Below, piece by piece: positions 17,701 through 45,913 of a stretch of DNA of 64,000 nucleotides (positions are counted from its first letter, which is position 1; every line of letters starts with the position of its first letter). The stretch is from Patescibacteria group bacterium. GTDB taxonomy: Bacteria > Patescibacteriota > Patescibacteriia > CAIXNZ01. A program made the position numbers and the translations under genes. The notes under the pieces were generated by a model. It was not told where the DNA came from and did not search any database. It was given only the letters and a program-made list of their open reading frames with translations. The stretch spans positions 2,653 to 66,652 of the forward strand of contig JBAZJU010000005.1 in NCBI GenBank assembly GCA_041651155.1, in the 5' to 3' direction.

Positions 17701-18116
17701 TTACTGTCCGTCCAGGCACAAAACTAGTCAAAATTCAGACAGATCCAAATGTTTATGCAGTTGAACCGGGCGGAATTATCAGAGCAATAAAATCAGAGGC
17801 AATTGCCGCAGAGTTATATGGGACAGATTGGGCAGCAAAAATTATAGATGTGCCAGATGTTTTCTTTGTTAATTATGTTAAAGGTCCTGATATCGCAGAA
17901 GCAAGCTATCCCGCCGGTTCATTAATCCAGTATCTTGGTTCAAGTGAAATTTATTATATAGATAATATGCTTAAGAGATTAGTGTCTGCCGAAGTTTTTA
18001 CTAACAATCTATATAATGCGGGCTTCGTGATTAAAAATGTAGCAATTACGAAAGTTTATTCTTTAGCGGAAAATCAGGCCAAATTATCAATCGCTGACAT
18101 GATGATGTTTAAATAA
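14793..18116 (+). CDS. Large secreted or cell-surface repeat protein (1107 aa): N-terminal TM/signal anchor, three ~130-aa repeats (ADGTATxGAG ... GDCIPGNGG), an Fn3-like domain, and a C-terminal ~300-aa domain. Putative adhesin.
   Basis: Hydrophobic N-terminus. Repeats at aa ~100, ~285 and ~440. Fn3-like TTPPGILTNV...TLTWQDP...SFSFRSEDTSGNLS. Strong terminator follows. Confidence 0.75.
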   Translation: MNLKSKKKEPWLSQGHLKFIAIYAALAIVLVINQVVFSYILKDRENANAFSNTDIGDVFSVLGNRDVPAGTNNVLVGQFIPPDPWVLGNPGQTCNFRLDDPGNNCLQLVDADGTATEGAGAASDGSKLMFFDWVLPSQPFTVGNFLFHVGDNICTDSYAAPTCVYIDSDGDCNSFTGTQSNILSPGGACATIADNLVAGATTPLWTHTELINNNNAYDYSATLGQSEAIWIRNLDPDDDIVQGSSWDLAFANQWQGDAPGAWTAQDTFYDANTDGIFNGALTEPVFIDKDNDGEYTDVANTVYEADGTATLGAGTNDDVIPDGTVLSPLLPADNVCISTLGLGGIGNIIIYVDGNGDCIPGNGGTDVLVRDDTGTLPLTVSPIPAPGFGTFPYAFISAAQILYYYDADSSVTWSYVNSAATTETLWARLQGLDQWHINKEGATGVIEADGTATIGAGVDDDALTNGAALTYLQPADNMCVSRNAITTAIEDIYIDTSGDCIPGNGGLDTILQDTTADGLNPATSGGFWASGAGTFAYFDGAVAANGVWDWGASAALTESIWIEIYGNEAASSADTNIYSYGTAIAGDPLTQLSAAVGPTSGEPLIYADADGLATLNSTDTILEDNGNVQTGIAGVPNGVIDREIDTLAYFSFLNAGTAVPGAEITNLALYAAGADDICDNPAGSVDDVFVNNFTWTGTEWSLPMIGEFSSLTTGRLCVSMNVSPATPPGRTFILAVPQLVDNNLNGLFETGDNGWFFYSSNDGAIGGNAVLPDTYTITVAPSYGGRTQDTTPPGILTNVNLKADSSGTITLTWQDPTDADLNNIVIDITTAGQTATQTVNKGVQTLIVSGGKAGQEYSFSFRSEDTSGNLSPKQVYSIVIPATGDTVITQPAAGEVLPTPIPPQVILPTNIKIGDLLKDAATKTVYVVGNDGKRHVFPNGATFFTWFNDFSLVKTVGDDILSQLPFGANVTVRPGTKLVKIQTDPNVYAVEPGGIIRAIKSEAIAAELYGTDWAAKIIDVPDVFFVNYVKGPDIAEASYPAGSLIQYLGSSEIYYIDNMLKRLVSAEVFTNNLYNAGFVIKNVAITKVYSLAENQAKLSIADMMMFK

Positions 18117-18361: not shown

Positions 18362-19858
18362 ATGAATTACTCAAAGATATTTTTTTATTCCTGTCTATTT
18401 TTTATTATCGGTGTCTTTGTCCACTCAGTATTGTCCATTGAGGCTTTTGTGATTTATTTAATTCTACTTGTTTCAATCTTATTTTTAATTTTAAGCTTTA
18501 AAAATAAATATTTTTTAGTGCTTGGTTTGTGGGGGCTTTTTTTGTTTTTAGGACTCTGGCGTTACCAGCTTTCTTTACCGCAAAAAAATCCAGGTCAGAT
18601 TTTTTATTATAATGGCCAGGAAGTTCAGATTAGGGGTTTTATTGATAAGGAACCTGACCAGAGGGAAGACAAGGTAAAACTGGAATTAAAAAGCCAAGAA
18701 ATTTTTCTCAGCAATTCTTGGCAAAAAGTATCAGGAAAAATTTTGGTCACTAATTATTTGTATCCCGAATATAGTTATGGCGACAGACTGGAGTTTACTT
18801 GTAATTTATTAAGCCCGGAGAATGTCCAGGGTTTTGCTTATGATGATTATTTAGCGCGCTATGATATTTATTCAACCTGTTATAATCCCAAGATAACTTT
18901 GCTAGCTAAAGGTCAGGGCAATTTTGCCTTGTCTGAGATTTTAAAGTTAAAGAGTTTTTTTATTGCCAGGCTGAATTATGTTTTGCCTGAGCCTCAGTCC
19001 TCATTTTTAGCCGGGCTTTTGATTGGCGCCAAAAGGGCAATTCCCGGGGATTTACAGACAGCTTTTAGTAAAACAGGAACCACGCATGTTGTGGCAGTGT
19101 CTGGCTATAATGTGACAATTATTGCTGTTTTTTTAATGCTCATCTTCCAGAATTTAGGTCTGGGCAGAAAGAAATCCTTTTGGTTGATTATTGGTTTTTT
19201 AATTTTCTTTGCTATCATGACTGGATTGCAATCCTCCTGTATTAGGGCGGCTATTATGGGAGGCGTAGTTTTACTGGCAAATTATTTGGGCAGGTTAAGT
19301 AAAATTAGAAATGTTTTAGTTTTAACTGCAGTTATAATGATTGCCTTAAATCCCAAGATTTTAGTTTTTGATCTGGGTTTTCAGCTCTCGTTTTTAGCAA
19401 CGTTAGGCTTAGTTTATTTGAATCCAATATTACTACAAATATTAAAAATTAAAAATTTAAAATTATCCGCCAGAGGCGGAAAAATTGTAAAATTGATTTT
19501 CGGCGATTTTTTGTTGACAACTTTATCAGCAATTATTATGACCCAGCCCATAATTTTATATAACTATGGCAAAATTTCTTTAATTGCGCCTGTGGCAAAT
19601 ATTTTGATCTTGCCTTTTGTGCCTCTAGCCATGCTTTTAGGCTTTTTAACTGGAATTTTAGCCATGGTCTGGACTGGATTGGGCTGGGTGGCTGGCTGGA
19701 GCGTTTGGCTGGTTTTAACCTATATTATCTGGATTTTGGAACATTTGGCTAAATTGAATTGGGCGTATTTTGAATTGCCGAAAATTAGTGTTTGGGTCAT
19801 GCTGATTTTTTACGCAATAATTATTGGTTCTATTTGGAGATTTAAAAAATCAGTTTAA
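18362..19858 (+). CDS. comEC: ComEC/Rec2 DNA-uptake channel, N-terminal OB/DUF4131 plus competence (PF03772) membrane domain
   Basis: 498 aa, polytopic. Motif HVVAVSGYNVTIIAVFLMLIF. Confidence 0.8.
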   Translation: MNYSKIFFYSCLFFIIGVFVHSVLSIEAFVIYLILLVSILFLILSFKNKYFLVLGLWGLFLFLGLWRYQLSLPQKNPGQIFYYNGQEVQIRGFIDKEPDQREDKVKLELKSQEIFLSNSWQKVSGKILVTNYLYPEYSYGDRLEFTCNLLSPENVQGFAYDDYLARYDIYSTCYNPKITLLAKGQGNFALSEILKLKSFFIARLNYVLPEPQSSFLAGLLIGAKRAIPGDLQTAFSKTGTTHVVAVSGYNVTIIAVFLMLIFQNLGLGRKKSFWLIIGFLIFFAIMTGLQSSCIRAAIMGGVVLLANYLGRLSKIRNVLVLTAVIMIALNPKILVFDLGFQLSFLATLGLVYLNPILLQILKIKNLKLSARGGKIVKLIFGDFLLTTLSAIIMTQPIILYNYGKISLIAPVANILILPFVPLAMLLGFLTGILAMVWTGLGWVAGWSVWLVLTYIIWILEHLAKLNWAYFELPKISVWVMLIFYAIIIGSIWRFKKSV

Positions 19859-19929
19859 GCTTTAAAATTAAGACATGTTTTTATTTAGAGAAATATTAAT
19901 TCGCCCAGATTAAATGATATAATATAATC

Positions 19930-20802
19930 ATGGAAAGATATTTAAGAAAAATAACCAAAATTTTAGGCAGCGCCTTGCTGATTGTTTTTTTATTAATTGC
20001 TTTTACTGCCCATTCGCAGAGCCAGAGGCAGAATCTGGAAATTGATTATCTGGATGTCGGCCAGGGCGATGCGATTTTAATAAAAACTCCTTATCAACAA
20101 AACATTTTAATTGATGGCGGGCCTGATAATAAAGTTTTAGCTGCTTTGGGCAAAAATTTGGCTTTTTATGATAAAGATATTGACCTGGTTATTTTAACTC
20201 ACCCTCACACCGACCATGTTATTGGCTTAATTGAAATTTTACGGCGTTACAATGTTAAAAAAGTTTTACTGACTGAAATTAAAAATAATTCCCCGCCTTA
20301 TTTAGCTTTTTTAGAGGAAATTAAAAAACAAAACATAATTGCAGAAAAAGCTGACAAGCCCCAGGATATTATTTTAGGCCAGGATCTGGATTTGAAAATT
20401 TTATATCCGTTTAATGATATTAGCTCAAAGAATTTTGAGGATTTAAATAATTCTTCAATCATAGTAAAATTAATTTACAAAAATAATTCCTTCTTATTTA
20501 CCGGTGATGCGGGCTTTCCTGAGGAACAGGATTTATTGGCCAGTAAAGTGGATTTAACTGCCAATGTCTTGAAAGTCGGCCATCATGGCAGTAAATATTC
20601 AACGAGCCAGGAGTTTTTAGCAGCGATTCAGCCGCAAGACGCCATAATTGAAGTAGGCGCAAATAATTCTTATGGCCATCCGAATTTGGCAACTATCAAT
20701 AGATTAGAAAAAAATAATATTAAAATTCTTAGAACTGATTTAAGCGGGACAATAGCAATTATTAGTGATGGGCAGAATATTAAAATAAAAGCCGAGAGAT
20801 AG
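19930..20802 (+). CDS. ComEC-associated metallo-beta-lactamase-fold protein, encoded as a separate gene (split ComEC)
   Basis: N-terminal signal/TM. DVGQGDAILIKTP, HPHTDHVIGL, VGHHGS. A 71-nt gap separates it from the competence-domain gene. Confidence 0.8.
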   Translation: MERYLRKITKILGSALLIVFLLIAFTAHSQSQRQNLEIDYLDVGQGDAILIKTPYQQNILIDGGPDNKVLAALGKNLAFYDKDIDLVILTHPHTDHVIGLIEILRRYNVKKVLLTEIKNNSPPYLAFLEEIKKQNIIAEKADKPQDIILGQDLDLKILYPFNDISSKNFEDLNNSSIIVKLIYKNNSFLFTGDAGFPEEQDLLASKVDLTANVLKVGHHGSKYSTSQEFLAAIQPQDAIIEVGANNSYGHPNLATINRLEKNNIKILRTDLSGTIAIISDGQNIKIKAER

Positions 20803-21965: not shown

Positions 21966-22268
21966 ATGGCTAAAATTAACTTAGAATTTAAGCTTCCAGT
22001 CTCTATTTTACGCGAAGGCAAGCAGTATATAGCCTATACGCCTGCTTTGGATTTATCTACCTCGGGGAAAACTTATAAAGAAGCTAAAAAGAGATTTGAA
22101 GAAATTGTTAATATTTTTTTTGAAGAACTTATTAAAAAAGGAACTGTAGATGAGGTTTTACAAGATTTAGGATGGAAAAGAGTTCTCTCAAAATGGAATC
22201 CGCCTATTGTAATTTCTCAAGAATCGCAATCAATAAGTATTCCCATGTCCAGTTTATGCCACGCTTAA
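21966..22268 (+). CDS. hicB: HicB-like (UPF0150) antitoxin-fold protein
   Basis: YIAYTPALDLSTSGKTYKEAKKRFEEIVNIFFEE matches the HicB N-terminal domain. Confidence 0.65.
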   Translation: MAKINLEFKLPVSILREGKQYIAYTPALDLSTSGKTYKEAKKRFEEIVNIFFEELIKKGTVDEVLQDLGWKRVLSKWNPPIVISQESQSISIPMSSLCHA

Positions 22269-22486
22269 CTCCAATACATTGGAAAATTTTTGAAAAGTTT
22301 ATTTTGTTTGTTGGCTGCAATTTCTCCAGGGAAAAAGGAGACCATAGGGTTTATAGCCGCGATGGATTAAAAAGGCCTGTAGTTATTCCGCGCAGCGGAG
22401 ATTTGCCCGTTTTTATTATCAGGAATAATTTGCGAGTTTTAAATATTAGTCCAGATGAATATCTGGAGATATTAAAACAATTATAA
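22256..22486 (+). CDS. hicA: HicA-like (YcfA family) mRNA-interferase toxin; overlaps hicB by 13 nt
   Basis: GDHRVYSRDGLKRPVVIPRSGDLPVFIIRNNLRVLNISPDEY. Start at the internal ATG; the ORF-track start at 22172 lies inside hicB. Confidence 0.6.
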   Translation: MPRLTPIHWKIFEKFILFVGCNFSREKGDHRVYSRDGLKRPVVIPRSGDLPVFIIRNNLRVLNISPDEYLEILKQL

Positions 22487-23316: not shown

Positions 23317-26300
23317 ATGCTTAATCTAAAATCAAAGAGCTCTGTTTTTTTATCCAAGCTAACCATGTCCGCGTTAGTTTTTTTGTTTATTTTTACTTCA
23401 AGCCCAGGTTTGGCTTTGGCAGCTGAAGAAGCTGTAAGCCCTGAAGCGCCTGCTGACACAAGTGCTTCAGCTGGATCTACTGATACTTCCACACCAACAA
23501 CTGACACAACAACCCCCACACCAGCAGAAGCGCCAGCTGATCAGGCGAGTTTGGATGGAGCTAAAGCTGATACAGAATCGCAAGATCAGGGCATGGATAC
23601 TTTGACTGAAGAGGAAGATCCTGAAAATAGCCCAGAAACAAAAAAAGCCGCTGAGAATAAATTTAATCTTGAGACCGATGGTTCTACTGGTGCTTTAATT
23701 TATACTTTTCCTTTAACTATTCCGCCGGGTAGAAATAATTTACAGCCTGATTTGAAATTAGTTTATAACAACCAAAATAACGATAACACTAATATTATTG
23801 GTTATGGCTGGTCTCTAAATATCCCTTATATTGAAAGACAACCTAAAATAGGCGTAAATAATCTTTATGATGAAAATTATTTTACTTCTTCTCTATCTGG
23901 TGAATTAGAAGATATTAGTTTGACCGATGGCCATCATGGCACCTATGGCTCAAAAGTTGAAAATGGCGATTTTTTAAACTACGAATTTAATGCGAATAAT
24001 TATTGGGTTGTCACAGATAAAAAGGGAACATTCTATAGGTTTGGTTATAATTCAGGCGCTCGCCAAGATGATCCGAATGACAGCTCTCATGCTTTCAAGT
24101 GGATGCTGGAAGAAGTACGAGACACAAATAACAATTACATTAAATATGAATATTATAAAGATGCAGGCCAGATATATCCAGCTGATATTAAATATACTGG
24201 CTATAATACAACCGATGGCATTTTTGAAATAGATTTTTTAAGAGAATCAAGGAATGACGACCTGGCTTCTTTTAAAACAGGGTTTGAAGTGACTACCAGT
24301 TATCGCATAAATGAAATTCAAGCAAAAATTAATGGCACCTGGGTCAAGAAATATCAATTAGATTATTCTTCTGGTGATAATGGAGTTCGTTCAATGTTAA
24401 ATACAATTACTGAAACTGGCCAGGATGAGCAGAGTAATACTATTACTTTGCCGACCAATGATTTTACATATCAAACTAAAACAAAAAGCTGGACAGAGGA
24501 TACGAACTATATAATCCCAGAAACTTTTGTCACCAATTCCTTCCGTGATTTTGGCACACGTATACTAGACATAAATGGTGATGGACTGCCGGATATAATT
24601 CGTAGCCAATGTCTCTATAATGGAAATTCATATAAAAAAGTTTATATAAATCAAGGCGACGGCACCGGGTGGGTAGAGGATACTAATTATACTATACCTG
24701 TCTGTTTCGTTAGTTCCGGCGGTTATGATACAGGAGCACGGCTGGCTGATATTAATGGCGATGGGTTTGTAGATATTCTTTATGCCTATAGACAATATGA
24801 TGGTTCAATATATAGCAAAGTTTACTTAAATCAAAACGATGGTACAGGTTGGGAAGAAGATACAAATTGGAGCATACCAGTTGATTTTTGTGGCGGGGGG
24901 CATGGCTCGGCCGCTAGATTGAGTGATGTAGATGGTGATGGTCTTGTAGATATTTTATCTTCCCAGTTGGATTATTACCAGCAAATAGTAGATCATGTAT
25001 ATATTAATAAAGGCGACGGTACTGGCTGGCAAGAAGACACAAATTATACAATACCAGAAAGCTTTGTTACTTATTCTTTGCACGATATGGGGACTCGTAT
25101 AATTGATGTAAATGGAGATGGGTTACCTGATATCCTTCGTTCTCAGCAGGGTGTTTCAGGAAATCCAGATATTAGGCATGTGTATATAAATAAGGGGGAT
25201 GGAACCGGTTGGGCAGAAGATACTAATTATACGTTACCTGAAAATTTTGTGACATATTCAGGATATGATTTTGGGGTGCGTACAGCAGATATAAATGGCG
25301 ATGGCCTAGAGGATATTATACGTGCACAAGATGGTATCTCTGGATATCCAGATATTAGGCATGTATATATTAATAATGGTGATGGCACTGGCTGGACAGA
25401 AGACACAAACTATACAATTCCCGAAAATTTTGCCGTAACGTCTTGTTTTGGGAATGGTACACAAATAATCGATATAAATGGTGATGATTTAGCTGATATT
25501 ATACGTGCACAAGATGGTATTCCCGGATATAGTATCCCTGATATAAAAGAGGTTTACATCTCAAATCCCCATAACGCAGATTTGTTATCACAAATTACCC
25601 AAAGCAGGGGTGGGCAGAGTAGTGTAGAATACAAAGGTTCTCCCCAATATTTAGACCTTTCTGTTAATTTATTAAATCCGCATTTACAGAAAATTATACA
25701 GACCGTCTCTCAAATAGAATATGATGATGGCCTGAATAACACATGGACTGAAAGTTATCAATACGCTGACGGCTTGTATTACTTTTCTGATTATCTTAAC
25801 CGCAAGTTGGCTGGTTTTGGCAAGGTGACGAAAACTGACGGAGAGGGCAATGTAACCAAGACCTATTTTCACCAGGGCAATGACAGTGATTCAAGCCATG
25901 GCGAGTATTCTGATGATGTTTCAAAAATTGGTAAGGTTTATCGGACTGAAAGTTATGACGACAGCGATAACTTGTATTCCAAAACCATAAACAAATGGGA
26001 AAATTATGATTTGGGGAATGACCAGGATTTTGTGAAATTAACCCAGACAATTGCTTCCAGTTATGACGGTAATACCAGCCATAAAGATAAGGCAGAAACC
26101 TATACTTATGATAATGCGAATGGAAATCTAACAGAGAAAATAACCTGGGGCGAGGTTACTGGTTCTGATAACGGCACCTTTACAGACACCGGTTCTGATA
26201 AATACACAACTGATATTGATTATGCCGCCACAACAGGCAGCGCGGTTATTGGCTCACCTTCCCATGAAACAACAATTGACCAGAGCTCAAATAAAATTAA

Positions 26301-29300
26301 GGAAACAAAATATTATTATGATACTTTAAGTTTGGGTTCAGTTGGGGCAGGCAATTTAACCAAGCAGGAAATGTGGAAATCAGGCACAAGTTATATCAAT
26401 GCCCAGAAAACTTACAATTCTTATGGCTTGGTGACTGAAGAAACAGATCCACGGGGCAAAACCACTGATTATACATATGATACTTATAACCTTTATCCTG
26501 CGAGTGTTACGAATGCTTTAAGTCAAACTAGCAGTTATGCTTATGATTATTCTTCAGGCAAGCCGACTCAGGTTACAGACCCTAATAGCCGGGTATTTCA
26601 GACTGTTTATGATGCCCTGGATAGGGTTAAGCAGGAAAAACAGCCTGATTTAACTACGCCAAGCACTTTGGTTGTGAAATCAGAATATACTTATACTGAT
26701 AATACTGTGCCAACTAAAGTCCAGCAGGCAAATAATCTGGATTCCTCAACTAGTTTTGATATTTATACTTATTTAGACGGGTTTGGCAGGAAAATTCAGG
26801 AAAGAAAAGAGGCTGAGGACACAAATACTTTTAGTGTTAAAGATTTTGTTTACAATGATCTGGGCCTGATTGAAAAAGAATCATTGCCGTATTTTTCGTC
26901 TGGTTCAAGCAGAACAACTGCCACAACTGACACTTCTCTTTATACCAATTATACTTACGACCCATTGCAAAGAGTTTTAACAGCAATTAACGCGGTTGGC
27001 ACAACATCCAATACTTATGATGACTGGAAACTGACAATCACTGACGCTGAAAGCAATGTTAAAGATTTATATAAAGATGCCTATGATAATTTGATCCAGG
27101 TTGACGAGCATAATGACAGCAACACCTATTCTACTTATTATGAATGGAATGGCTTGTCTAATTTGACCAAAATAACAGATTCGCAGGATAATGTCAGGAA
27201 TTTTACTTATGATGGCTTGGGCAGAAGATTAACAGCTGAAGATTTGCATGACACGTCTGATTCATATTTTGGCGCTTGGACTTACAGCTATGATGATTCA
27301 GGCAATTTAACCTCTCGTTTAGACCCCAAGAGCCAGACAGTCAACTGGACTTATGATGATCTTAACCGCGTCTTGACTGAAGATTACACTGGCCAAACCG
27401 GCACAGAAATAACTTATGCTTATGACACTGGCACTGACGGGATTGGCAGATTATATACTGCGACAACTCCGGATGTTGTCACGACTTATGCTTATAATGC
27501 TTTAGGCGGGGTTAAAACAGAGAATAAGAATATTAATTCTGCTGATTATTTGACAGAATACGAATATGACCGCCAGGGGAACCAGACTTTGATAACCTAT
27601 CCCAATGACATTGAAGTAAAATACAATTACAACACGGCCGGGCTTTTAGAAGAAGTTGAAGCTAAAGCATCAGGCGATCCAAGCTATACTGATTTAGTTA
27701 GCGATTATGATTATTCGCCATTGGAGCAGGTTGCTTATCAGGAAGATGCTAATGGTGTTAAAACATATAATACTTATGATGCTGCAGAATTGTATCGGTT
27801 AAAGGAAAAGATTACGGCTAGTGTTGACGAAGGTGGTTTTGAAGATCTTTATAATATAGCTATGGCTGGTGGGGCTGGAAACGGTAGTAAGTCCTACGAA
27901 ATTACGAATCCGTATGAATATACGAATAGTTCCTCAGTGAGCTTGCCTGGGATAACTGATAATCCGGTTGTTCAGGGTTTGGGTTCCATTGTCAAAGCAG
28001 CCCTCGCCCCCCTTGTCATTCAGAGTGAGCCATTGAAAATGGCGAGCGAAGAATCCTTTACTTCAAATAATCCCTTTTCAGCTGCCTTTGACTTGGGTAA
28101 CAATGCGAATACTGCGAATGTTGTTAAGGGTTTAGGCTTAATTGTTAAAGCAGCCCTTTCACCCACCTCTGTCATTCTGAACGGCAGTGAAGAATCTGTT
28201 ACCACCCCTTCTGCTTATTCAGCTGCTTTTGATTTGGGTAATAATGCGAATGCTACGAATGATATTAAGGTTGAACCTAAACTAGACCTCTGGGGCAAGC
28301 CAGTTGATTACAAACTACCCAAAGACAAAACCATTTATCTTAAATACGACAAAGAAGCCAAGCCCGGGGAACTGCCAAAGGAAGCCATTGAATTTCTTGA
28401 TAAGTCTGGCAGTAAAATTAATTCTCCGGAATTAAAATCCATTTATCCTCAAGAAGCGATTGATTATTTTAATTCAGGGCCAAAATCAATTACCGGCAGT
28501 TTGTCGGGCGCAGGCGCGTCATTAAGCAAAAATGATTTTCATATGGCTCTGACCGGCACAATGCCCAATCCTTCAACTAATTTGAATTCAGAAAGCAAAT
28601 GGACAACAGAAAATATTATTTACAACCAGGGGTTTGAAGACGGGTTTAACAGCTGGACCTGGCAGAATAATTTAGACGCCACTCGCCAGGAAGATTGCAC
28701 TGTTTCTTACGCAGGCGATTGTTCAGAAAAGGCGATTGTTAATACTGCCGGTTCATTTTGGCAAGTGCAATTATCCCAGATTTTACGGCTTGATCAGGAT
28801 ACAAATTACAAATTGCGCTTTAAAGCTAAAGCGTCAACTGCCACCACTTTTAGCTTTGACGCTGAAGAAAACCACAGCCCATATAATCTGCTTGGCTTAT
28901 GGGCAAGCAATGTTGCGATTGGCACTGACTGGACAACTTATGAATATTCTTTCACTGCCTTGGCCAATGATCAAAACGCCAAAATAACATTTCACCTGGG
29001 CGCAAATTCAGCCACTTACTGGTTTGATGAAATTGAACTCATACCTGATACGTTTAACAAAATCAAAAATCCCAGTTTTGAAAACAGCGCTGCTTACTGG
29101 GGCTTTACCAGTTTTGGCGGAGGCTATGGCGCAGGCACCAACAGCATTGATTGCGGTTCTCCGGTTGAAGGCAGCTGTGATGACAATGTTGACATCACTG
29201 TCACCGGCAATTACTGGGAAGTGAGCTTGTCCCAGCCCACTGCTTTGGACAGTACCAAGACCTATGAATTATCTTTTTACGCCCGCACTGATTCCCCATA

Positions 29301-37552: not shown

Positions 37553-38074
37553 ATGAAAAAAATTATAAAGATCGCCTTGTTAATAATTTTTATTATCTTA
37601 TTAGTCTGTTTGTTTCTCTATATATATTTTATAAATCTGAATAAAGTTGTTGTTTTCGAAAATAATCAAAAGGCAGAATATTATGTGCATGAATATTGGG
37701 TATATAAAGAGATTAAGGATAATAAATCATATATCGATATAGCATTAGGACTTCATAGGCCTTGGTCGATTAAGTATCTTCATACCCTACCCAAATATGA
37801 GAGAGTTGCAGTTTTACATTTAGTTTTTAATGGTAATATCTTAGAAGAATCTAAATATTTTTTTCTTAAGCTTTCTAGCCTAAATGATAAAGATAAAATA
37901 ATAAATTTGGTAGGTGTCGCGCAGCTAAATAATACCTATTTATCGAATATAAATTTAGAGGGGAAGGAAGATAATAATTCACAAGTGGGGTACTATTTGA
38001 AAAAAATTAATTTAATCAATGCTAAAAGCATTGATGTCGATGCGGAATCATATTGGTTTGCTCAAGGAAAATAA
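37553..38074 (+). CDS. Candidate immunity protein 4 (N-terminal TM, 173 aa)
   Basis: Directly downstream of cassette 3. Hydrophobic N-terminus. Confidence 0.5.
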   Translation: MKKIIKIALLIIFIILLVCLFLYIYFINLNKVVVFENNQKAEYYVHEYWVYKEIKDNKSYIDIALGLHRPWSIKYLHTLPKYERVAVLHLVFNGNILEESKYFFLKLSSLNDKDKIINLVGVAQLNNTYLSNINLEGKEDNNSQVGYYLKKINLINAKSIDVDAESYWFAQGK

Positions 38075-38075
38075 T

Positions 38076-38483
38076 ATGAAACGAATTTTTTGCATCATTT
38101 TTATCCTTTTATTCCTATTCTCTCCATTGGCTGTTTTCGCTCAAGCAGAGAGCTTTCCTGCACCTATTGATACCCAAGTCTGTGTTATTCCAGTCTATCT
38201 TTTTGCTACCCAAGAAGGGGGTGCTTTAGCCATCACGCCAGTCGCCGAAAACCAGTATTTATATGCTTATGCTACATCTGCTGAAAAAGTGGAAACTGGC
38301 CTCATAAACCCCACAGGAACTGCGACAGCAGACCAATCCTCAACAGAACTCGGAGACCAGCCAATCATTCCCATGGGTTTGCTTTTGGTCGCTGTGGGTT
38401 CTGATCCTGATGCCGTAAACTCATTCTTGGAAACTGGAGAGGGTGTTGGCCAGCGGATTTTCACGGGGCACATAGCAAACTAA
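38076..38483 (+). CDS. Small secreted protein (signal peptide MKRIFCIIFILLFLFSPLAVFAQA) whose last codons (...RIFTGHIAN*) are a remnant of the RHS core
   Basis: 17-nt exact match TTCACGGGGCACATAGC to the cassette-3 core (FTGHIADDSTT). Most likely a fourth, deleted cassette. Confidence 0.4.
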   Translation: MKRIFCIIFILLFLFSPLAVFAQAESFPAPIDTQVCVIPVYLFATQEGGALAITPVAENQYLYAYATSAEKVETGLINPTGTATADQSSTELGDQPIIPMGLLLVAVGSDPDAVNSFLETGEGVGQRIFTGHIAN

Positions 38484-38587
38484 TGCTAAAAAGAGATTCC
38501 TTTTCTGGGGGTCTTTTTTTGTTTTCTTAAAATCTCAAATTATGCTAAAATTAAAATAGGATTAAATATTATTAAATCCTTTATTTT

Positions 38588-40258
38588 ATGTTATCCAGCC
38601 AGAAATTAAGAGAGATTTTAGTTAAGCCGGGCTATATTAAAGAGCTTGATTTTAGCACAGCCCAAAAAGAGGCCAAGCTCAAGAAATTAAGCCTGGAACA
38701 GGTTTTGGTTGATAATGGCTTAATCAAGGATGAGAATTTGGGGCAGTTAATTGCCGAAGCTCTGCAATTTCGCTATGTGAGTTTGGCCAAAAAGACTATT
38801 AAACCGGAAATTTTAAAGATTATTCCGGAAATTGTGGCAAAAAAACAGCTGATCATTGCTTTTGATAAAAATAAAGACGGTCTGTTTGTGGCTATGAATA
38901 ATCCTGATAATTTGCAGTTCCAGCATTTTTTGGCCAAAAAAACTGGGGATAAAATAATTCTATTTTACGCCACCCAAAAAGATATTTTAAAATCTGCCAG
39001 GCTTTATCACAAAGAACTTAAGGAGGAATTTTCAGATTTGATTTTAAAGCATTTAAAACAGGTTAAAACAGGCGGTGATGAAAAATTGCCGATCATTAAA
39101 ATTGTTGAGTCCCTGATAAAATACGGTTATGAAAACCGCGCCTCAGATATTCATATTGAACCGCATGACAATGACACTCTTATTCGTTTTAGAATTGACG
39201 GAGTTTTGCATGATGTCTTATCAATTCCTAAAGAATATCATGACATGATCGTGTCCAGAATAAAAATCATGTCTAATTTACGCACTGATGAACACAAAAG
39301 CAGCCAGGATGGCAAATGCAGATTTAATTTAGCTGATGAAAAATTGGATATCAGAGTTTCTGTTGTGCCAATCATTGAGGGCGAGAAAATTGTGCTGCGC
39401 TTACTCTCCAAAAAAACCAAAGAATTAAATTTAGAAAATTTGGGTTTAAGTAAAGCTGAAGCTAAAAAAGTAACAGAAGCCATCAAAAATCCTTATGGCA
39501 TGATTTTGGCAACTGGCCCGACCGGATCTGGCAAAACCACGACTTTGTATGCGATTTTAAAGATTTTAAATAACCGCGATGTTAATATCTCCACAATTGA
39601 AGATCCCGTTGAATATGATGTTGAAGGCATTAACCAGATTCAGGTGGATAGCGAAACCAATCTGACTTTTGCCAAAGGCTTAAGATCTATTTTAAGGCAG
39701 GATCCTGATATTATTATGGTAGGTGAAATCAGAGATGAGGAAACAGCGAAAATTGCCATTAATTCAGCCATGACCGGGCATTTAGTATTATCAACTCTGC
39801 ATACTAATGATGCCGCCACAACTTTGCCTCGTTTGCTGGATATGAAAGTTAAACCGTATTTAATTGCTTCTACCGTGTTAATTGCTATTGCCCAGCGTCT
39901 GGTCAGAAAAATTTGCCCCAATTGCATTAAAAGTTATAGCTTACCAAGCGAGGAATTTTTAAAATTAGTTCCCAAAACTATTGGTTCAAAATTTACTGAT
40001 GGCAAAACAAAAATTACTCTTTATAAAGGCGAGGGCTGTAAGTTGTGCCATAAAACAGGTTATTTGGATCGGCTGGGAATTTTTGAAGTTTTAACAGTCA
40101 GTCCGGCCATTCGTGATTTAATTGTAAAAAAAGCTACAAGCCAGCAAATTAAAAAACAGGCAATTGATGAAGGCATGGTCACCATGTTAGAAAACGGGCT
40201 TGAAAAAGCTCTTTTGGGCTTAACCACTCTGGAAGAGGTTTTAAGAATAATAAAATAA
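38588..40258 (+). CDS. pilB: Type IV pilus / T2SS assembly ATPase (GspE/PilB family)
   Basis: 556 aa. Walker A GPTGSGKTTT. Asp box and His box. C-terminal CxxC...CxxC zinc motif. Confidence 0.9.
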   Translation: MLSSQKLREILVKPGYIKELDFSTAQKEAKLKKLSLEQVLVDNGLIKDENLGQLIAEALQFRYVSLAKKTIKPEILKIIPEIVAKKQLIIAFDKNKDGLFVAMNNPDNLQFQHFLAKKTGDKIILFYATQKDILKSARLYHKELKEEFSDLILKHLKQVKTGGDEKLPIIKIVESLIKYGYENRASDIHIEPHDNDTLIRFRIDGVLHDVLSIPKEYHDMIVSRIKIMSNLRTDEHKSSQDGKCRFNLADEKLDIRVSVVPIIEGEKIVLRLLSKKTKELNLENLGLSKAEAKKVTEAIKNPYGMILATGPTGSGKTTTLYAILKILNNRDVNISTIEDPVEYDVEGINQIQVDSETNLTFAKGLRSILRQDPDIIMVGEIRDEETAKIAINSAMTGHLVLSTLHTNDAATTLPRLLDMKVKPYLIASTVLIAIAQRLVRKICPNCIKSYSLPSEEFLKLVPKTIGSKFTDGKTKITLYKGEGCKLCHKTGYLDRLGIFEVLTVSPAIRDLIVKKATSQQIKKQAIDEGMVTMLENGLEKALLGLTTLEEVLRIIK

Positions 40259-40260
40259 AT

Positions 40261-41355
40261 ATGAATGAGGGGAAAGAATTTAAGTATTTAAACTGGCACA
40301 TTAATTTCGGTTTTAATGTGGAAAAGATTTTATTTGCCAAAACTTTAGCCACGATTTTAAATTCAGGCATTAATATCGCTGATGCTTTGCGCATTGTGGA
40401 AGCCCAGTCAGTCGGCCAATTTAAGCTTATTGTGGCTAATGTCAGAAAAGGCGTGGAAAGCGGAGAAAATTTAGCCAAAGCTTTAGCTAAATATCCCAGA
40501 TATTTTAATCCAGTTTATATTGGCTTGGTTAATGTGGGTGAAAAAACAGGGCGTTTAGTGGAATGTTTAAATTATGTGGCCGAGCAGCAGGAAAAAGATC
40601 TGGAATTATCGCGCAAAGTCCAGTCAGCTTCACTTTATCCCATGATTGTCTTTGCGTGCTTAATGGCTCTGGCCGCGCTTTTGAGCTATTATATTTTGCC
40701 CCAGCTGATTGTGGTTTTCAATTCATTTAATATGCCTTTGCCCTGGACCACAAAATTGCTTTTAGCCGTCGCTCAGATTATCAGGGATCATGGGATTTTA
40801 ATTCTAGTTTCAATCTTGGCATTTTTAATTTTTGTCAGGTATTTAGTCAGAACCAAAACAATCAAGCCCTATTGGCAGGCAGCTGGCTTAAGCATTCCTT
40901 TTTTCGGGGAACTGATCAGAAAATTAAACTTAGCGCGTTTTTGCTTGATTATTGGCGTGCTTTTAAAAAGCGGTATCCCGCTAAATGAAGCTCTTGATAT
41001 CGGCATTGAGAGTTTAAGCAATGAAGTTTACAAAATTCAGCTTAAAAAAGTTAAAGCCAGAGTAGTGGCCGGATTATCATTGGGCGAAGCAATTGAAAAT
41101 TTAAATAAGCCTGATTTATTTCCCAAAGTAGTGTCGCAAATGATTAGCGTAGGTGAGCGCACAGGCACTTTGGAAAAAAATATTTTATACTTGTCTGATT
41201 TTTACCAAAAAGATGTTGATAATATCAGCAAGAATTTATCCAATGTGCTGGAGCCGATTTTATTGATTGCGGTCGGATTAGTCGTGGCCTTAATTGGCGT
41301 GGCAATAATCTCCCCAATTTACGAATTTATTTCAACACTTAGCCACTCGATATAA
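40261..41355 (+). CDS. pilC: Type IV pilus platform protein (GspF/PilC family)
   Basis: 364 aa with duplicated GspF domains; polytopic. Confidence 0.85.
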   Translation: MNEGKEFKYLNWHINFGFNVEKILFAKTLATILNSGINIADALRIVEAQSVGQFKLIVANVRKGVESGENLAKALAKYPRYFNPVYIGLVNVGEKTGRLVECLNYVAEQQEKDLELSRKVQSASLYPMIVFACLMALAALLSYYILPQLIVVFNSFNMPLPWTTKLLLAVAQIIRDHGILILVSILAFLIFVRYLVRTKTIKPYWQAAGLSIPFFGELIRKLNLARFCLIIGVLLKSGIPLNEALDIGIESLSNEVYKIQLKKVKARVVAGLSLGEAIENLNKPDLFPKVVSQMISVGERTGTLEKNILYLSDFYQKDVDNISKNLSNVLEPILLIAVGLVVALIGVAIISPIYEFISTLSHSI

Positions 41356-41820
41356 ATGACAAATAAATTGCCAATTTCAAAATTTCAAACTTCAAATCCA
41401 GGATTTACTTTAATAGAATTATTAATTGTGATTGGAATAGTAGTTTTACTGGCTGCTATTTTTTTGCCTATTGGCCTGAATTTTTATCAGATTCAGGTTT
41501 TAAATCAAACCAATGACCAGGTCATCTGGCTTTTAAAACAAGCCAGAAGCAGTGCTTTAAGCCAAAAGAATAATTCTGCATTTGGCCTTTATTATAATAA
41601 TCAGCAATTAACTTTATATCAGGGCGCAAGTTATGAGGCAAGGCAAGTAGATTTTGATGTAAATTATAAAATACCCAGTAGTGTTAAAATTGAGGGCTTA
41701 AGCGATATCAATTTTAGTTTGGCTCAAGGTTTGCCCGGCCAAACTGGCACAATAATTTTAAGCTCTAATCAAATTACCAAAACAATTACGCTTAATTCAA
41801 TCGGTCTGATTGATTATTAA
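41356..41820 (+). CDS. Prepilin-type N-terminal cleavage/methylation domain protein (pseudopilin or minor pilin)
   Basis: G|FTLIELLIVIGIVVLLAAI class III signal. Confidence 0.75.
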   Translation: MTNKLPISKFQTSNPGFTLIELLIVIGIVVLLAAIFLPIGLNFYQIQVLNQTNDQVIWLLKQARSSALSQKNNSAFGLYYNNQQLTLYQGASYEARQVDFDVNYKIPSSVKIEGLSDINFSLAQGLPGQTGTIILSSNQITKTITLNSIGLIDY

Positions 41821-41822
41821 TT

Positions 41823-43262
41823 ATGAAAAATAAAAATGGTTTTACTCTAATTGAAATTCTGCTGGCAGCGGCTATTTTTTTAATTATTTTTTTAGGCGTT
41901 AGTTTTTTAATGCTTGATAATCTTAATTTTAGTTTTAATAATCAGGAAAGAATAAGGGCTGAATTTTTAGCTCAAGAGGGAATTGAAGCCACTAAGGCGA
42001 TTGCCGATAATAATTTTAAGGATTTAACTGATGGGAGCCATGGTTTGGCTATAAATAATAATCAGTGGCAGCTGACTGATGCAGCCGAAAACCTTAATCA
42101 AACATTAAAAAATGGCCAGCGCCAGATTATTATTAGTGATCAGGACACGAATTTAAAAAAAGTTGAAAGTTTAGTGACCTGGCAGGATATTAAAAATAAT
42201 TCTAAAGAAACTTCATTGCTGACTTTTTTAAGCAACTGGCAGAGAACTTTAGGCGGGGATTGGTCAGAGCCGGTTGTGGATGGCTTTTATGCCATGGTCT
42301 CAGAAGCACGTTCTGTTTTCCATGTGGGCAATTACACTTATATCGGCGCTTTGAATTTTAAAGATGAGCCTGATTTTTATGTTTTTGACACTGCTGATTT
42401 AAAAAATCCCGCCTTAGTTGCCACTTTGGATTTAGGCGCTAACACTTGGGCCACGATTAATTCTATTTATGTGGTTGGCAATTATGCGTATTTAGCCACT
42501 AATATAAATGGCCGGGAATTTGTTGTTTTAGACATTAGCGATCCGCAAAATCCAATTGATGTTGCTCATCAGACAACGCAAACCTTAACCGACGCCACAG
42601 GCATCCATGTTTCAGGCGATTATGCTTATCTGACTAATTTATGGAAAAAGAACCAAAAACAGCTTTATGTTTTTAATATTGCCAATCCATTAAACCCCGA
42701 TTTTGTGTCCAGAATTGACCTGGCTGACTCAGCCTATAATTTAACTTTCCAGAATAATTACGTTTTTGTGGCTAGCGGCAAAGATGACCAGGAATTGCAG
42801 ATTATTGACGTGGCTGATCCTCAAGGCTCTACTCTCTATACCAGCTTAGATTTGCCAGGCGCAAATGATGCTTATGATGTTTATGTTAAAGATAATAAAG
42901 GTTATCTGGTTAGAGCCGCAGGCACTGACAGTTCTGAATTTTACATTTTAGATTTAAGTAATTTGCAATCCCCGCAAATAATCAGTTCCTTAAAATTAGC
43001 TTCTAATTTCAGGACAGTTTATGCTTTTGGCCCGGCCTCGGCCGAGACGGGCGATAAATATATGTTTGTAGGCGGTGATCTGGATAAAGAGCAATTTCAG
43101 GTCATTGATATTTCAGATTTAAATAATCCCAGAGTAATTTCAACTTTAGATATTAATGGCATTGTTTATGATTTGGTGACTGATGATGTGGCAGCCTACC
43201 TAGCTGTGGGCGGCGGGTTAACAGGCTTTAATGGTTTAAAGATAGTGGTACCGGGGCCATAA
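41823..43262 (+). CDS. Prepilin-like protein with a C-terminal LVIVD-type beta-propeller repeat domain (large minor pilin or tip adhesin)
   Basis: GFTLIEILLAAAIF signal. Repeated YVVGNYAYLATN / DVADPQ / DISDLNNP motifs (six to seven blades). Confidence 0.7.
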   Translation: MKNKNGFTLIEILLAAAIFLIIFLGVSFLMLDNLNFSFNNQERIRAEFLAQEGIEATKAIADNNFKDLTDGSHGLAINNNQWQLTDAAENLNQTLKNGQRQIIISDQDTNLKKVESLVTWQDIKNNSKETSLLTFLSNWQRTLGGDWSEPVVDGFYAMVSEARSVFHVGNYTYIGALNFKDEPDFYVFDTADLKNPALVATLDLGANTWATINSIYVVGNYAYLATNINGREFVVLDISDPQNPIDVAHQTTQTLTDATGIHVSGDYAYLTNLWKKNQKQLYVFNIANPLNPDFVSRIDLADSAYNLTFQNNYVFVASGKDDQELQIIDVADPQGSTLYTSLDLPGANDAYDVYVKDNKGYLVRAAGTDSSEFYILDLSNLQSPQIISSLKLASNFRTVYAFGPASAETGDKYMFVGGDLDKEQFQVIDISDLNNPRVISTLDINGIVYDLVTDDVAAYLAVGGGLTGFNGLKIVVPGP

Positions 43263-43324
43263 TTTTCATTCAGCCGAAGAGGCGATTTGCAAATCGCCTC
43301 TTCGGCTGTGGAATTTTTAATTAT

Positions 43325-44395
43325 ATGGATAATAAACCTAAAAAACAAAAAGGCTTTAGTTTGATTGAGCTGATTTTATATCTTGGGCTTTTGGCTTTTC
43401 TTTTTTCAGTGTTATTTGTTTTTTTCCAGCAGACGATTTATGCAAAGGCCAAAATAAATGATAAGATTGAACTGGTTGATAGCGGCCAGTTTGCCTTAAA
43501 TAAAATTGTTTGGTATCTCAAGCAGGCTGAGAGTGTAAATTCACCAGCCATTGGTCAGAGCCAAAATACCTTATCTCTAAATTTGGCTGACCAAACACAA
43601 AACCCAATAGAATTTTTGCTGGAAAATAATGTTTTATTAATGAAAATTAGTTCTAATCAAACTGTGGCGCTGACAAGCAGTAGAATTAAAGTTAATCAAA
43701 TTACGTTTTCAAATTTTGCTTTTTCCGCCAATAGTCCAATTATCCAAATACAAATGGAATTAGCCAGTGCAAGTCAGCTTTGGAAAAATCAGCCGATTAA
43801 GCTGCAGACAAGCGTTAATATATCCCATTTGGGCGCTGGGGATGAAGAATTGGGCGGAGAGCAATGTTCGGAAACAGAAATTATTCTGCAACCAACCGGT
43901 AATATAATCGCGCCAAAAGGCGATTTGGAATTAAAAGTAGTTGGTTCAGAAATCACTTATGGAGCTGGCGGTCCGCAAGTTGATGTTGATTCTAAGATCT
44001 GGCTAGATAACAATTTGCTGACTTTATTCGGCGGTGAGCCAGTGAATGGCGGCGAGCTATACACAGCTAGTTTATCTGCCCGGACCAATGTAGCGGTCAG
44101 AGCTCATGCGCAATACAGAACTATCTTCAGCCAATATTATGATTCAAACACAGGCTCCCCTCATGTGAAAGTTTTAAAAGATGGGGATGATTTGCCAAAC
44201 ACGCCTGTTTTTGGCAATCAGACTCCTTTACCCGCACTTTTGGCGCCCTTTATAGATGCAAATAGGAAAATCAGCATTTTAGATAAGCAAATTTTGATGC
44301 TTTTTGAATTTGGCGATTTAAATTCTGCTGCTGCTGATTTTCAGGATCTGGTCGTCTTATTTACTTTTACTCCTGATAATTCAATCTGCAATTAA
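43325..44395 (+). CDS. Prepilin-like minor pilin (356 aa)
   Basis: KGFSLIELILYLGLLAFLF N-terminal class III signal. Confidence 0.7.
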   Translation: MDNKPKKQKGFSLIELILYLGLLAFLFSVLFVFFQQTIYAKAKINDKIELVDSGQFALNKIVWYLKQAESVNSPAIGQSQNTLSLNLADQTQNPIEFLLENNVLLMKISSNQTVALTSSRIKVNQITFSNFAFSANSPIIQIQMELASASQLWKNQPIKLQTSVNISHLGAGDEELGGEQCSETEIILQPTGNIIAPKGDLELKVVGSEITYGAGGPQVDVDSKIWLDNNLLTLFGGEPVNGGELYTASLSARTNVAVRAHAQYRTIFSQYYDSNTGSPHVKVLKDGDDLPNTPVFGNQTPLPALLAPFIDANRKISILDKQILMLFEFGDLNSAAADFQDLVVLFTFTPDNSICN

Positions 44396-44406
44396 ATTAT
44401 GATATT

Positions 44407-44817
44407 ATGAATAAGCCAGGGTTAGTAGAAAAAGTGAAAAACGGCTATATTGCTCTAATTTCTTTAATTATTATTGGCGCCATTGTTTTAATCTCTGTTT
44501 TGGCTTTAACTTTTATCACCATAAGCCAGACCCAGAATATGATCAGCCAGAATCAAAGTTTAAAAAGTTATTATCTGGCCAATGCTTGCGCTCATTATGC
44601 GATTTTGCAATTACAAGACAATGTTAGTTATGGCGGAAATGAAACAATTGAAGTTGATAGCTACAATTGCCAGGTTGAGCAGATTTTAGACAGTGGCAAT
44701 GCCAATCGGATCATTAATACAAGCAGCAACGTAGCTAGCAGCAATGCAAAAATTCAGGTAATTATTTCCCAGCTTAAGCCCAGGACAATCATAAGTTCCT
44801 GGCAGCAAATTTATTAA
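44407..44817 (+). CDS. Pilus-associated membrane protein (PilX/ComGG-like?), N-terminal TM
   Basis: NGYIALISLIIIGAIVLISVLA hydrophobic anchor. Sits in the pilus operon. No canonical G-F-T-L-I-E motif. Confidence 0.4.
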   Translation: MNKPGLVEKVKNGYIALISLIIIGAIVLISVLALTFITISQTQNMISQNQSLKSYYLANACAHYAILQLQDNVSYGGNETIEVDSYNCQVEQILDSGNANRIINTSSNVASSNAKIQVIISQLKPRTIISSWQQIY

Positions 44818-44824
44818 AAATAGT

Positions 44825-45913
44825 ATGTCAATTTTCCAGCAAATCAAAACCAAATTCCAAGCTAAATTTCCCATGGTGGCTGTTGATATTTCTGATAATT
44901 CCATGGAGTTAATGCAGTTAAAATCAGGGCCGGCAAAACCGCAGATTAGATCATCTTATCGCCAGGTGCTGAAAGCCAATTTAGTAAAAAATGGGGAAAT
45001 TATTGAGATTGACAAAGCAGCTGAAATTTTAAAACAGGCTTTTAATTCAGCTTTGCCAAAATTTAGCACAAAGTTTTGCCTTCTATCTTTGCCTGATAAG
45101 CAGTCATATTTTTTATCCCTGCATCTTAAAAGCCGGGCTGGAAATCTGGGAGATAAAATCAAGAAGTTGGCTCAGGAAAAATTGCCAGTTGATTTGGCAA
45201 CTTGTTATTTTGATTATTCGCTGACTCGTTCTGATAAAGAAGGCCAGGAAGTTTTTTTCGCAGCTGCAAGCAAAGATTTGGTTGAGCAATACCAGGAATT
45301 ATTTACCAAGGCAGGCCTTTATCTGGCAGCCATGGAATTTGAATCAGCTTCATTAGCCCGTGCCTTGTTGTCTGAAGAAGATTTGGTTAAGCCAATTTTG
45401 ATTGTTGATTTGGGGGCAGTGGCAACTGATATAATTCTGCGCGATCAGCATGGTTTTCGCGATCAGCTTAATTTGGTTTTTGGCGGTTATTATTTGACCA
45501 AAAAAATAGAAGAAAATTTAAATCTGGAATTTAAAGAAGCAGAACAGCTTAAGAAAAAAGAAGGCTTGAATCTGCGCCAAAACAATCTGGATAAAATTTT
45601 AGCTTTGAGTTTTAACGACTTATGCTCGGAAATTACCAATATAAAATCAGCTTATGAAAAACGGACAGGCCAGAAAATTGAAAAACTAATTTTAGCAGGG
45701 GGCACGAGCTTGCTTGCGGGCTTGCCGGAATTGTTGCATCAAAAATTACCCGGCTTACAGGTTGAAATGGGAGATCCAACCAAGCAATTAGATTTTTATG
45801 CAAAGAACCTAAAAAATGATAAAATATTATATAGCAATGTCATTGGCCTGGCTTTAAGGGGGCTCAATAAAGAAAGTCTGAACCAGGGCATTAACTTAAT
45901 TAAAATTAATTAA
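44825..45913 (+). CDS. pilM: Type IV pilus assembly protein PilM-like (actin/FtsA-like ATPase fold)
   Basis: 362 aa. VAVDISDNSMELMQL N-terminal motif and domain layout typical of PilM. Operon context. Confidence 0.6.
   Translation: MSIFQQIKTKFQAKFPMVAVDISDNSMELMQLKSGPAKPQIRSSYRQVLKANLVKNGEIIEIDKAAEILKQAFNSALPKFSTKFCLLSLPDKQSYFLSLHLKSRAGNLGDKIKKLAQEKLPVDLATCYFDYSLTRSDKEGQEVFFAAASKDLVEQYQELFTKAGLYLAAMEFESASLARALLSEEDLVKPILIVDLGAVATDIILRDQHGFRDQLNLVFGGYYLTKKIEENLNLEFKEAEQLKKKEGLNLRQNNLDKILALSFNDLCSEITNIKSAYEKRTGQKIEKLILAGGTSLLAGLPELLHQKLPGLQVEMGDPTKQLDFYAKNLKNDKILYSNVIGLALRGLNKESLNQGINLIKIN

Follow-up and report, generated by a model that had tools for sequence, protein, structure and literature searches.

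Why one giant RHS gene should be followed by three shorter genes that start again inside its conserved core is the question raised by positions 23317-38483 of a 64,000-nucleotide (nt) stretch of DNA from a Patescibacteria group bacterium (contig JBAZJU010000005.1 of assembly GCA_041651155.1; the whole stretch is called the window hereafter). The window is chromosomal DNA of a metagenome-assembled genome (MAG) of the Patescibacteria, or candidate phyla radiation (CPR). Members of this group have very small genomes and spend their lives on the surface of other microbes, and little is known of how they fight or exploit their neighbours. The favoured explanation, held with a probability of about 0.78, is a chromosomal RHS polymorphic-toxin locus composed of a delivery gene, spare toxin/immunity modules and a degenerate second gene, with ~15 kb devoted to secreted toxins and immunity genes. 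Public annotation already names these genes as RHS-core proteins, and the gain is therefore a refinement and not the discovery of a new kind of system.

The delivery gene and the repeated core

The secreted RHS protein of 2701 amino acids (aa) claimed in the sequence-only reading, an earlier annotation made from the letters of this DNA, was confirmed as an open reading frame (ORF) with a signal peptide legible in its translation (Table 1). Matches to the RHS/YD (RHS_repeat), SpvB and Rhs-core models, the searches proposed with that reading, were all above curated cut-offs. Pfam RHS_repeat matched the main protein in 4 stretches (E 2.9e-24), TIGR01643 also matched it, and TIGR03696 (Rhs_assc_core) matched the main protein and the three downstream proteins (orphan cassettes 1 to 3), all four at 49.6-59.8 bits (curated cut-off 32.5). 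The main gene would encode a Sec-exported RHS cocoon of fused TcB-TcC build, in which SpvB and an FG-GAP propeller precede a YD shell and an aspartyl-autoprotease core. Across 121 homologues, two aspartates with a spacing of 24 residues (D261/D285 in cassette-3 numbering) showed at least 90% conservation; they presumably correspond to the autoprotease pair that releases the toxin in solved Rhs/TcC proteins, and cleavage is predicted here too.

The YD motifs of the main protein ended near aa 1533 and restarted at aa 2177. The insert in this part of the shell contained an internal ~60-aa tandem duplication, two carbohydrate-binding module (CBM) domains of the CBM_4_9 family and one immunoglobulin-like (Ig) domain. 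The homologous shell of L085, another CPR genome, was uninterrupted at the insert site ('YRLTKKITKTLSGVVQDMAYTYDRVGNI') and had no insert, and the main protein of a further CPR genome (L001; 57% identity over aa 76-2506) had the same insert; for both reasons the insert is read as lineage-specific and as lying in a single loop of a shell that is otherwise continuous. Other domains occupied the insert site in a homologue (P0028). The two CBM and the Ig domain would be displayed on the surface, outside the cocoon, and could bind glycan on the target.

The claim that the three downstream ORFs (32019, 34181 and 36014) restart in the RHS core was borne out by nucleotide homology to the 3' region of the main gene, at 73-82% overall. 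Main-gene positions 29801-30690 were 82% identical to 36000-36889 (cassette 3), positions 29801-30657 were 73% identical to 32005-32853 (cassette 1), and positions 30059-30690 were 74% identical to 34197-34822 (cassette 2). The orphans repeated the last ~330 (or ~265) residues of the main shell plus the core, continued into other toxins after DPxG(L/N), and had neither a signal peptide nor the N-terminal delivery domains. Alignment of the window's four copies broke at the same point at the end of the core, where PxxxxDPxG(L/N) read NPLRLIDPLGL, NPLKYVDPLGL or NPMNRIDPTGN. A metagenomic protein (P0004) was 71% identical in aa through CBM, Ig, shell and core, and unrelated directly after its version of the motif (DPDG). 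Conservation that ends at DPxG reads as the hallmark of polymorphic toxins. The displaced-cassette architecture proposed earlier agreed with the profile matches, the core homology, the break at DPxG and the occurrence of the same layout, a main RHS gene plus an orphan array, in two other CPR genomes (L001 and L085), one of them with recognised Imm44 and Imm11 genes. Cassette 3 was 100% identical to a public protein (P0001). No extra copies of the elements of the locus were found elsewhere in the window.

Under the favoured explanation, the three signal-less orphan modules, each with 265-330 residues of shell plus core, an alternative toxin and a membrane-anchored immunity protein, would be a reservoir. 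The stored immunity genes would protect against relatives firing those toxins, and homologous recombination in the 0.6-0.9-kb core repeats could move a stored toxin onto the delivery gene.

Table 1. Features of the RHS locus, in window coordinates. TM, transmembrane; CT, C-terminal toxin.
Feature	Position	Strand	Evidence
Main RHS toxin gene, 2701 aa	23317..31422	+	Pfam SpvB, FG-GAP_3, RHS_repeat, CBM_4_9, Ig_Rha78A_N, weak NlpC/P60; NCBIfam TIGR03696, YD_repeat_2x
Sec-type signal peptide, aa 1-35, ...GLALA|AEE	23317..23421	+	n/h/c-region pattern by eye in translation, without predictor
SpvB domain, aa 122-284, TcB-like N-terminus	23680..24168	+	Pfam PF03534, E 5e-16
FG-GAP blades (beta-propeller), 183-nt repeat units (repeat family D5)	24457..25542	+	Pfam FG-GAP_3, 4 stretches, E 4e-25
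YD/RHS shell, first part, aa ~990-1500	26284..27816	+	YD motifs aa 999-1533; RHS_repeat best stretch 1325-1358; DUF6443; YD_repeat_2x
~660-aa shell insert, aa ~1501-2166	27817..29814	+	Pfam and sequence reading
First CBM_4_9 domain of insert	28612-29007	+	Pfam
Ig_Rha78A_N domain of insert	29509-29793	+	Pfam
C-terminal shell module plus Rhs-associated core, aa 2167-2495, ends NNPLRLIDPLGL; repeat unit common to orphans	29815..30801	+	
TIGR03696 core in main protein, aa 2400-2495	30514-30801	+	NCBIfam
Main CT, 206 aa, candidate NlpC/P60/CHAP-like papain-fold peptidase	30802..31422	+	Pfam NLPC_P60, motifs
Putative immunity protein 0, 177 aa, N-terminal TM helix	31427..31960	+	Position; no Pfam match
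37-nt leader, copy 1, before cassette 1; contains GAGGA	31978..32014	+	
Orphan cassette 1, 517 aa: shell module, Rhs core, Ntox44 (CT from nt 33009)	32019..33572	+	Pfam Ntox44, TIGR03696
Immunity protein 1, 202 aa, N-terminal TM helix	33583..34191	+	Pair conserved in L082
Orphan cassette 2, 430 aa: 5'-truncated, mosaic core, zincin-like toxin, degenerate HEMGL (nt 35279-35296)	34181..35473	+	
Putative immunity protein 2, 130 aa, 2-3 hydrophobic segments	35493..35885	+	Position
37-nt leader, copy 2, before cassette 3	35973..36009	+	
Orphan cassette 3, 507 aa, GTG start: shell module, Rhs core, zincin-like toxin (CT from nt 37046; HELGHW nt 37331-37348)	36014..37537	+	
Putative immunity protein 3, 173 aa, N-terminal TM helix	37553..38074	+	Position
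Truncated 5' head, 135 aa: signal peptide plus ~110-aa N-domain	38076..38483	+	phmmer homologues, L082/L084
17-nt exact match TTCACGGGGCACATAGC, = 36776-36792 in cassette 3 only, encodes FTGHIA in frame	38460..38476	+	blastn-short E 0.002
Terminator-like hairpin and T-run ending locus before pilB	38487..38521	+	Consensus match only

Toxin tips and candidate immunity proteins

The locus holds three toxin families and not four. Each cassette had been thought to carry a different C-terminal domain, which failed for cassettes 2 and 3, whose pre-toxin linker and toxin were homologous (80-90% nt identity falling to ~55%; 48% aa identity over the CT). The C-terminal payload of the main protein is probably an NlpC/P60-like peptidase that cleaves the cell wall: it matched Pfam NLPC_P60 (E 1.4e-4; 22.2 bits against a cut-off of 23), CHAP (E 0.069) and LytE in the PDB (E 0.03), and a candidate catalytic pair was found in typical contexts, with Cys at aa 2590 (NWKCNYF) and His at aa 2655 (GSYHAGIYFG). 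Cassette 1 matched Ntox44 (PF15607; E 1.3e-13; 51.6 bits against a gathering cut-off of 24), and the DxK, GNxxxG and DxxxD motifs of the family definition (PMC3482391) were present as DYK, GNLNYG and DQPID. An Ntox44 domain occurred together with LysM in two CPR homologues (P0057, P0070).

The toxins of cassettes 2 and 3 formed a small family with two other proteins (P0005, P0011) and shared with them the signature HExxHWAND…GNLNP. HELGH was kept in cassette 3, P0005 and P0011, and read HEMGL in cassette 2, which leaves cassette 2 without the second metal-binding His; because of HEMGL and its 5' truncation, cassette 2 is probably decaying. Pfam metallopeptidase matches were all sub-threshold with this family. 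The top Foldseek matches of a model of the domain (predicted local distance difference test, pLDDT, 71.5) were nearly all zinc peptidases, the best at a non-significant E of 0.095, and the toxin is considered zincin-like with moderate confidence. Sequence searches of the PDB with the three toxin types gave nothing significant.

A small TM protein had been reported after each toxin. An N-terminal hydrophobic helix was found each time, but the protein after cassette 2 had 2-3 hydrophobic segments and not one. The four small proteins were mutually unrelated, including proteins 2 and 3, and each was unique in the window. Immunity protein 1 had a counterpart in L082 (GCA_016927685.1), where the Ntox44 tip was 56% identical and the next protein (197 aa, TM) was 41% identical to it; the L082 pair sits behind a wholly different delivery part, and the Ntox44/immunity pair is thus conserved in a different gene context. 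Proteins 0, 2 and 3 are immunity candidates by their position, and protein 0 would most likely be the immunity protein for the main toxin, membrane-anchored and with its domain outside the cell. Lys/Arg residues preceded each N-terminal helix, which suggests an outward-facing domain and fits envelope-acting toxins. No homology was found between the immunity candidates of the window and those of L001 and L085. Both the peptidase-like character of the tips and the membrane anchors of the immunity candidates suggest that the conflict is fought at the cell envelope.

The same pairs bear on the probable target. In an alternative to conflict among relatives, the arsenal would be aimed mainly at the host bacterium of the epibiont, whose wall it would breach for attachment or feeding, and less at competing relatives. 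That the organism is a Patescibacteria MAG and that the shell bears two CBM is consistent with such a target, and so is the resemblance of the payloads to envelope-acting peptidases, but nuclease-type tips (LHH, Tox-REase-7) occurred in homologous CPR systems. The locus adjoins a type IV pilus operon, but this adjacency was not conserved, since the RHS gene of L001 follows rpoC. Each toxin was moreover paired with a dedicated downstream protein, and the tips were hypervariable between relatives. Paired immunity and variable tips are the signature of kin/competitor conflict in the general polymorphic-toxin account (PMC3482391, PMC12419801); conflict among relatives is favoured for this reason, and a mainly host-directed arsenal is judged rather unlikely.

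Orphan starts and the history of the array

The start proposed for cassette 2 (34181) agreed with the ATG used in public annotation (P0002), which overlaps the end of the preceding gene, but not with the mechanical ORF, which runs from 34073, nor with the core homology, which begins only at 34197. Cassettes 1 and 3 began at the same core nucleotide and opened with ATG/GTG at the homology boundary behind GAGGA, so that the expected absence of orphan start signals was not observed. The 37-nt leader in front of both gave 2 matches in the window and 0 in 100 shuffles, and the main gene had no more of it than the last ~10 nt (from AGGATTATTT). A promoter or Shine-Dalgarno (SD) reading of the leader was rejected, because promoter-like sites were at chance frequency (70 vs 66±8) and GAGGA and ATG were conserved main-gene coding sequence.

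These starts bear on a second alternative, in which the orphans are independently translated mini-RHS/TcC-like proteins (cap module, autoprotease and toxin) that act alone or dock on a shell protein. Cassettes 1 and 3 are full ORFs from the exact module boundary, with ATG/GTG, an upstream GAGGA and a common leader, but the orphan Met and GAGGA are again the conserved coding sequence of the main gene (KDYFVMQGK), an SD-like sequence was missing from most nearby genes, and the promoter-like sites were at chance level. Orphan cores were under purifying selection, but cassette 2 was truncated and its active site degenerate. In short proteins of other CPR bacteria (P0005, P0014, P0021, P0101, P0120) the module was preceded by a signal peptide or different N-terminal domains, but the orphans of the window had no signal peptide or other export signal. 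The module alone folded confidently in an AlphaFold2 model of cassette 3 (121 homologues; mean pLDDT 80.6; >90 over most of aa 20-280), and the model matched the C-terminal part of solved RHS cocoons (Tse15, teneurin, YenC/TccC, RhsA; Foldseek E ~1e-15). The matches covered 12-37% of the solved RHS shells, and ~330 residues are too few to close a cocoon. Independent mini-toxins are accordingly improbable, and a reservoir of spare modules behind one delivery gene is preferred.

The divergence of the core copies is consistent with the favoured explanation. Synonymous divergence (dS) between them was >1 and the ratio of nonsynonymous to synonymous divergence (dN/dS) was 0.07-0.16, and the cores are therefore old, selected coding sequence and not fresh local duplicates. 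Most simply, the copies would have diverged in different lineages before being brought together. The core of cassette 2 was a mosaic, 95-96% identical to the main gene/cassette 3, then 91-97% identical to cassette 1, then 80-90% identical to cassette 3. Patches of 91-97% that switch partners along cassette 2 point to recombination or gene conversion inside the array, and these exchanges appear recent and superimposed on the old divergence. At least 4 orphans of L001 shared one boundary, inside the Ig domain, unlike that of the window. A common boundary in each genome fits the spread of an orphan unit (core fragment, toxin, immunity gene and junction) by repeat recombination. An assembly artefact, in which variants of a single RHS 3' end from different strains would have been strung together in a metagenome-assembled contig whose repeats have short patches at 95-97% identity, is highly improbable, because the copies were too diverged for collapsed or chained strain variants (73-82% nt identity, dS >1), unique immunity genes and junctions separated them, cassettes 1 and 3 had a specific non-coding leader in common, and the same kind of array was found in independent assemblies from other samples, on 455-kb and 305-kb contigs.

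Several points weigh against a locus of delivery gene and spare modules. Cassettes 1 and 3 are intact ORFs that start at the module boundary behind GAGGA and the leader, which leaves independent translation some small probability. Ntox44 is a family without known function (PMC3482391), the NlpC/P60 and zincin assignments are under curated or significance thresholds, and none of the four small proteins matched a known immunity family in Pfam. The order of the array depends on the assembly, as the contig is metagenome-assembled and holds diverged repeats of ~0.9 kb. No closely related strain with a stored cassette at the main-gene position was found, and cassette swapping is for this reason inferred and not observed. 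A scan of GTDB genomes with the neighbouring PilB gave matches of ≤47% identity over most of the query and a few partial-length ones at 49-55%, and a scan of viral contigs with cassette 1 found no phage-borne relative.

Truncated head, related systems and flanking genes

At the end of the locus, the sequence-only reading had placed a 17-nt exact core fragment at 38449-38465 and taken it as the mark of a fourth, deleted cassette. That interval has no second copy in the window, the exact 17-mer is at 38460-38476, and the ORF around it was the truncated 5' head of a separate small Rhs-core toxin gene with a phmmer family of its own. The head ORF ended 'GEGVGQRIFTGHIAN*', with the stop three codons past FTGH. 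In a phmmer search against 1.84e9 representatives it had 9 matches below 1e-10. Head homologues of 356-428 aa had the head joined directly to the last ~60 Rhs-core positions and then a toxin, with no YD shell; the core of this small family read FTGHEYD…ARYY…GRFxSQDP…NNPLxxxDPxG, and the tips were diverse (e.g., LHH nuclease, Ntox44). One protein (P0120) had the same head plus a short shell module. The ~110-aa N-domain of the family had no Pfam match.

L082 was 93% DNA-identical to window positions 38381-38470 and continued with core, Ntox44, immunity gene, a further small-type orphan and a prophage-like block. L084, the single useful locus from a metagenome scan with the head ORF, had a related gene with part of a big-type orphan behind it. 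The counterpart genes of L082 and L084, both cut at the 5' side by the contig end, ran past FTGH into Rhs core and toxin. Because the homologues and both loci continue in this manner, the head ORF is read as a truncated second gene: the window keeps the head of a second, small gene for a Sec-secreted Rhs-core toxin, from which core, toxin and immunity gene are missing. After FTGH the window had IA, with the codons of cassette 3/the main gene, and the sister strain read FTGHEYD; these 17 nt suggest an earlier fusion of the head to a big-type core, with loss of the tail only afterwards. A resemblance of the head ORF to the N-terminus of P0101 was also considered, and BLASTP gave no support for it beyond the signal peptide.

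A tentative but quite possible reading is that the ~70-residue Rhs core acts as a universal recombination adapter and serves one toxin/immunity pool to two Sec-exported chassis in this CPR lineage, a giant CBM-decorated RHS cocoon and a tiny shell-less protein (signal peptide, ~110-aa N-domain and core autoprotease). If so, the tiny chassis would release toxins without an encapsulating shell, and the head at 38076-38483 with its FTGHIA codons would be the scar of a cassette exchange.

Three side observations concern these loci. The small Sec-signal family (P0122-P0127, P0120; L082 1-3094; L084 48-1522) was CPR-restricted and had its own orphan arrays. The prophage-like block beside the small-toxin array of L082 (3106-10653) had genes for two large serine recombinases, terminase and ParB/N6-methyltransferase. 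Big-type orphan fragments in L084 (1519-3413) and L001 (21351-21554) were cut at different points and both continued '…GDLKSFERS…', followed in L084 by an IS200/IS605-type TnpA look-alike (translation read by eye); this common continuation may belong to a mobile element with orphan cores as its insertion sites.

Enterobacterial Rhs loci (Escherichia coli, Salmonella, Dickeya, Serratia) have orphan rhs-CT/rhsI modules. The window resembled them in its YD shell, its core ending in PxxxxDPxG(L/N), the abrupt toxin switch and the downstream immunity gene, and in downstream orphan modules that keep a core piece and can recombine with the main gene. It differed from them in having a Sec signal and a TcB-like head where theirs have PAAR/VgrG and a type VI secretion system (T6SS), in its CPR origin, in two orphans with one precise 5' boundary and a common leader, and in its membrane-anchored immunity candidates and CBM/Ig shell insert. 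Pfam scans of the window ORFs found no PAAR or T6SS families, and the N-terminus of the main protein was a signal peptide followed by SpvB. The general polymorphic-toxin scheme for such Rhs loci has been described (PMC3482391).

The Tc-toxin TcB-TcC proteins (PDB 4O9X, TcdB2-TccC3; 4IGL, YenB-YenC2) have in common with the main protein SpvB, the FG-GAP propeller, the RHS cocoon and an aspartyl-protease core that releases a hypervariable C-terminal toxin, and the cassette 3 model superposed on TcC chains. In contrast to them, B and C are fused in one chain in the window, the payloads look antibacterial and have immunity genes, and the C-side module has ~330 aa where TcC has ~680 aa. A Pfam scan of the larger ORFs of the window found no TcA-type domains or partner. 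WapA of Bacillus subtilis has wall-binding repeats, tRNase tips and cytoplasmic immunity. The window shares with WapA-type Sec-dependent RHS toxins of monoderms the Sec signal, RHS repeats, polymorphic toxin tip and adjacent immunity gene, in a cell without outer membrane or T6SS, whereas its SpvB/FG-GAP head, peptidase-like tips and outward-facing immunity candidates are different. CdiA-CT/CdiI orphan arrays belong to contact-dependent inhibition loci, with delivery by a filamentous CdiA of the type V secretion system that has a VENN motif; they are likewise tandem displaced toxin/immunity modules retaining a short conserved pre-toxin piece, but they depend on CdiA as the delivery protein and have no RHS shell.

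Among CPR bacteria, a 2487-aa RHS/YD polymorphic toxin with a neighbouring immunity gene was mentioned in one sentence for the saccharibacterium 'T. rhizospherense' (PMC6031116). Like the main protein here, it is very large, secreted and equipped with sugar-binding domains, and its immunity gene lies next to it, but its report has no orphan array and its accessory domains are PA14 and galactose-binding. In the literature searched, RHS toxins in CPR appear only in passing mentions (PMC6031116, PMC10031880), and no description was found in CPR of orphan arrays, of a CBM/Ig shell insert or of a shell-less small family. This locus and the similar arrays of L001 and L085 suggest that polymorphic-toxin antagonism between bacteria matters in CPR bacteria, which lack T6SS-type machinery, and the CBM/Ig shell and the shell-less Rhs-core toxins are concrete variants for RHS delivery without a dedicated injection apparatus.

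Guanine plus cytosine (GC) content of the window was ~35-40%, and ~32-34% over the toxin tips and small genes. Directly downstream (38588-45913) was a type IV pilus operon (PilB, PilC, N-methyl pilins, PilM) that included a 479-aa LVIVD/beta-propeller pilin-like protein. The upstream flank encoded IF-2, LeuRS, RNase Y, EF-G, EF-Tu, ComEC, NDK and a HicA-like toxin. The HicA-like toxin ORF (21966-22486; Pfam PF07927) was just upstream of the RHS gene and overlapped an upstream 100-aa ORF. ComEC was apparently split (18362-20802), with Competence and DUF4131 domains at 18362-19858 and the metallo-beta-lactamase domain at 19930-20802. A 1107-aa ORF at 14793-18116 had a weak DUF4959 match only. 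It lay in a stretch with a GC content of ~43-45%, compared with ~36% in the surrounding sequence, and could encode a surface protein or be of foreign origin.

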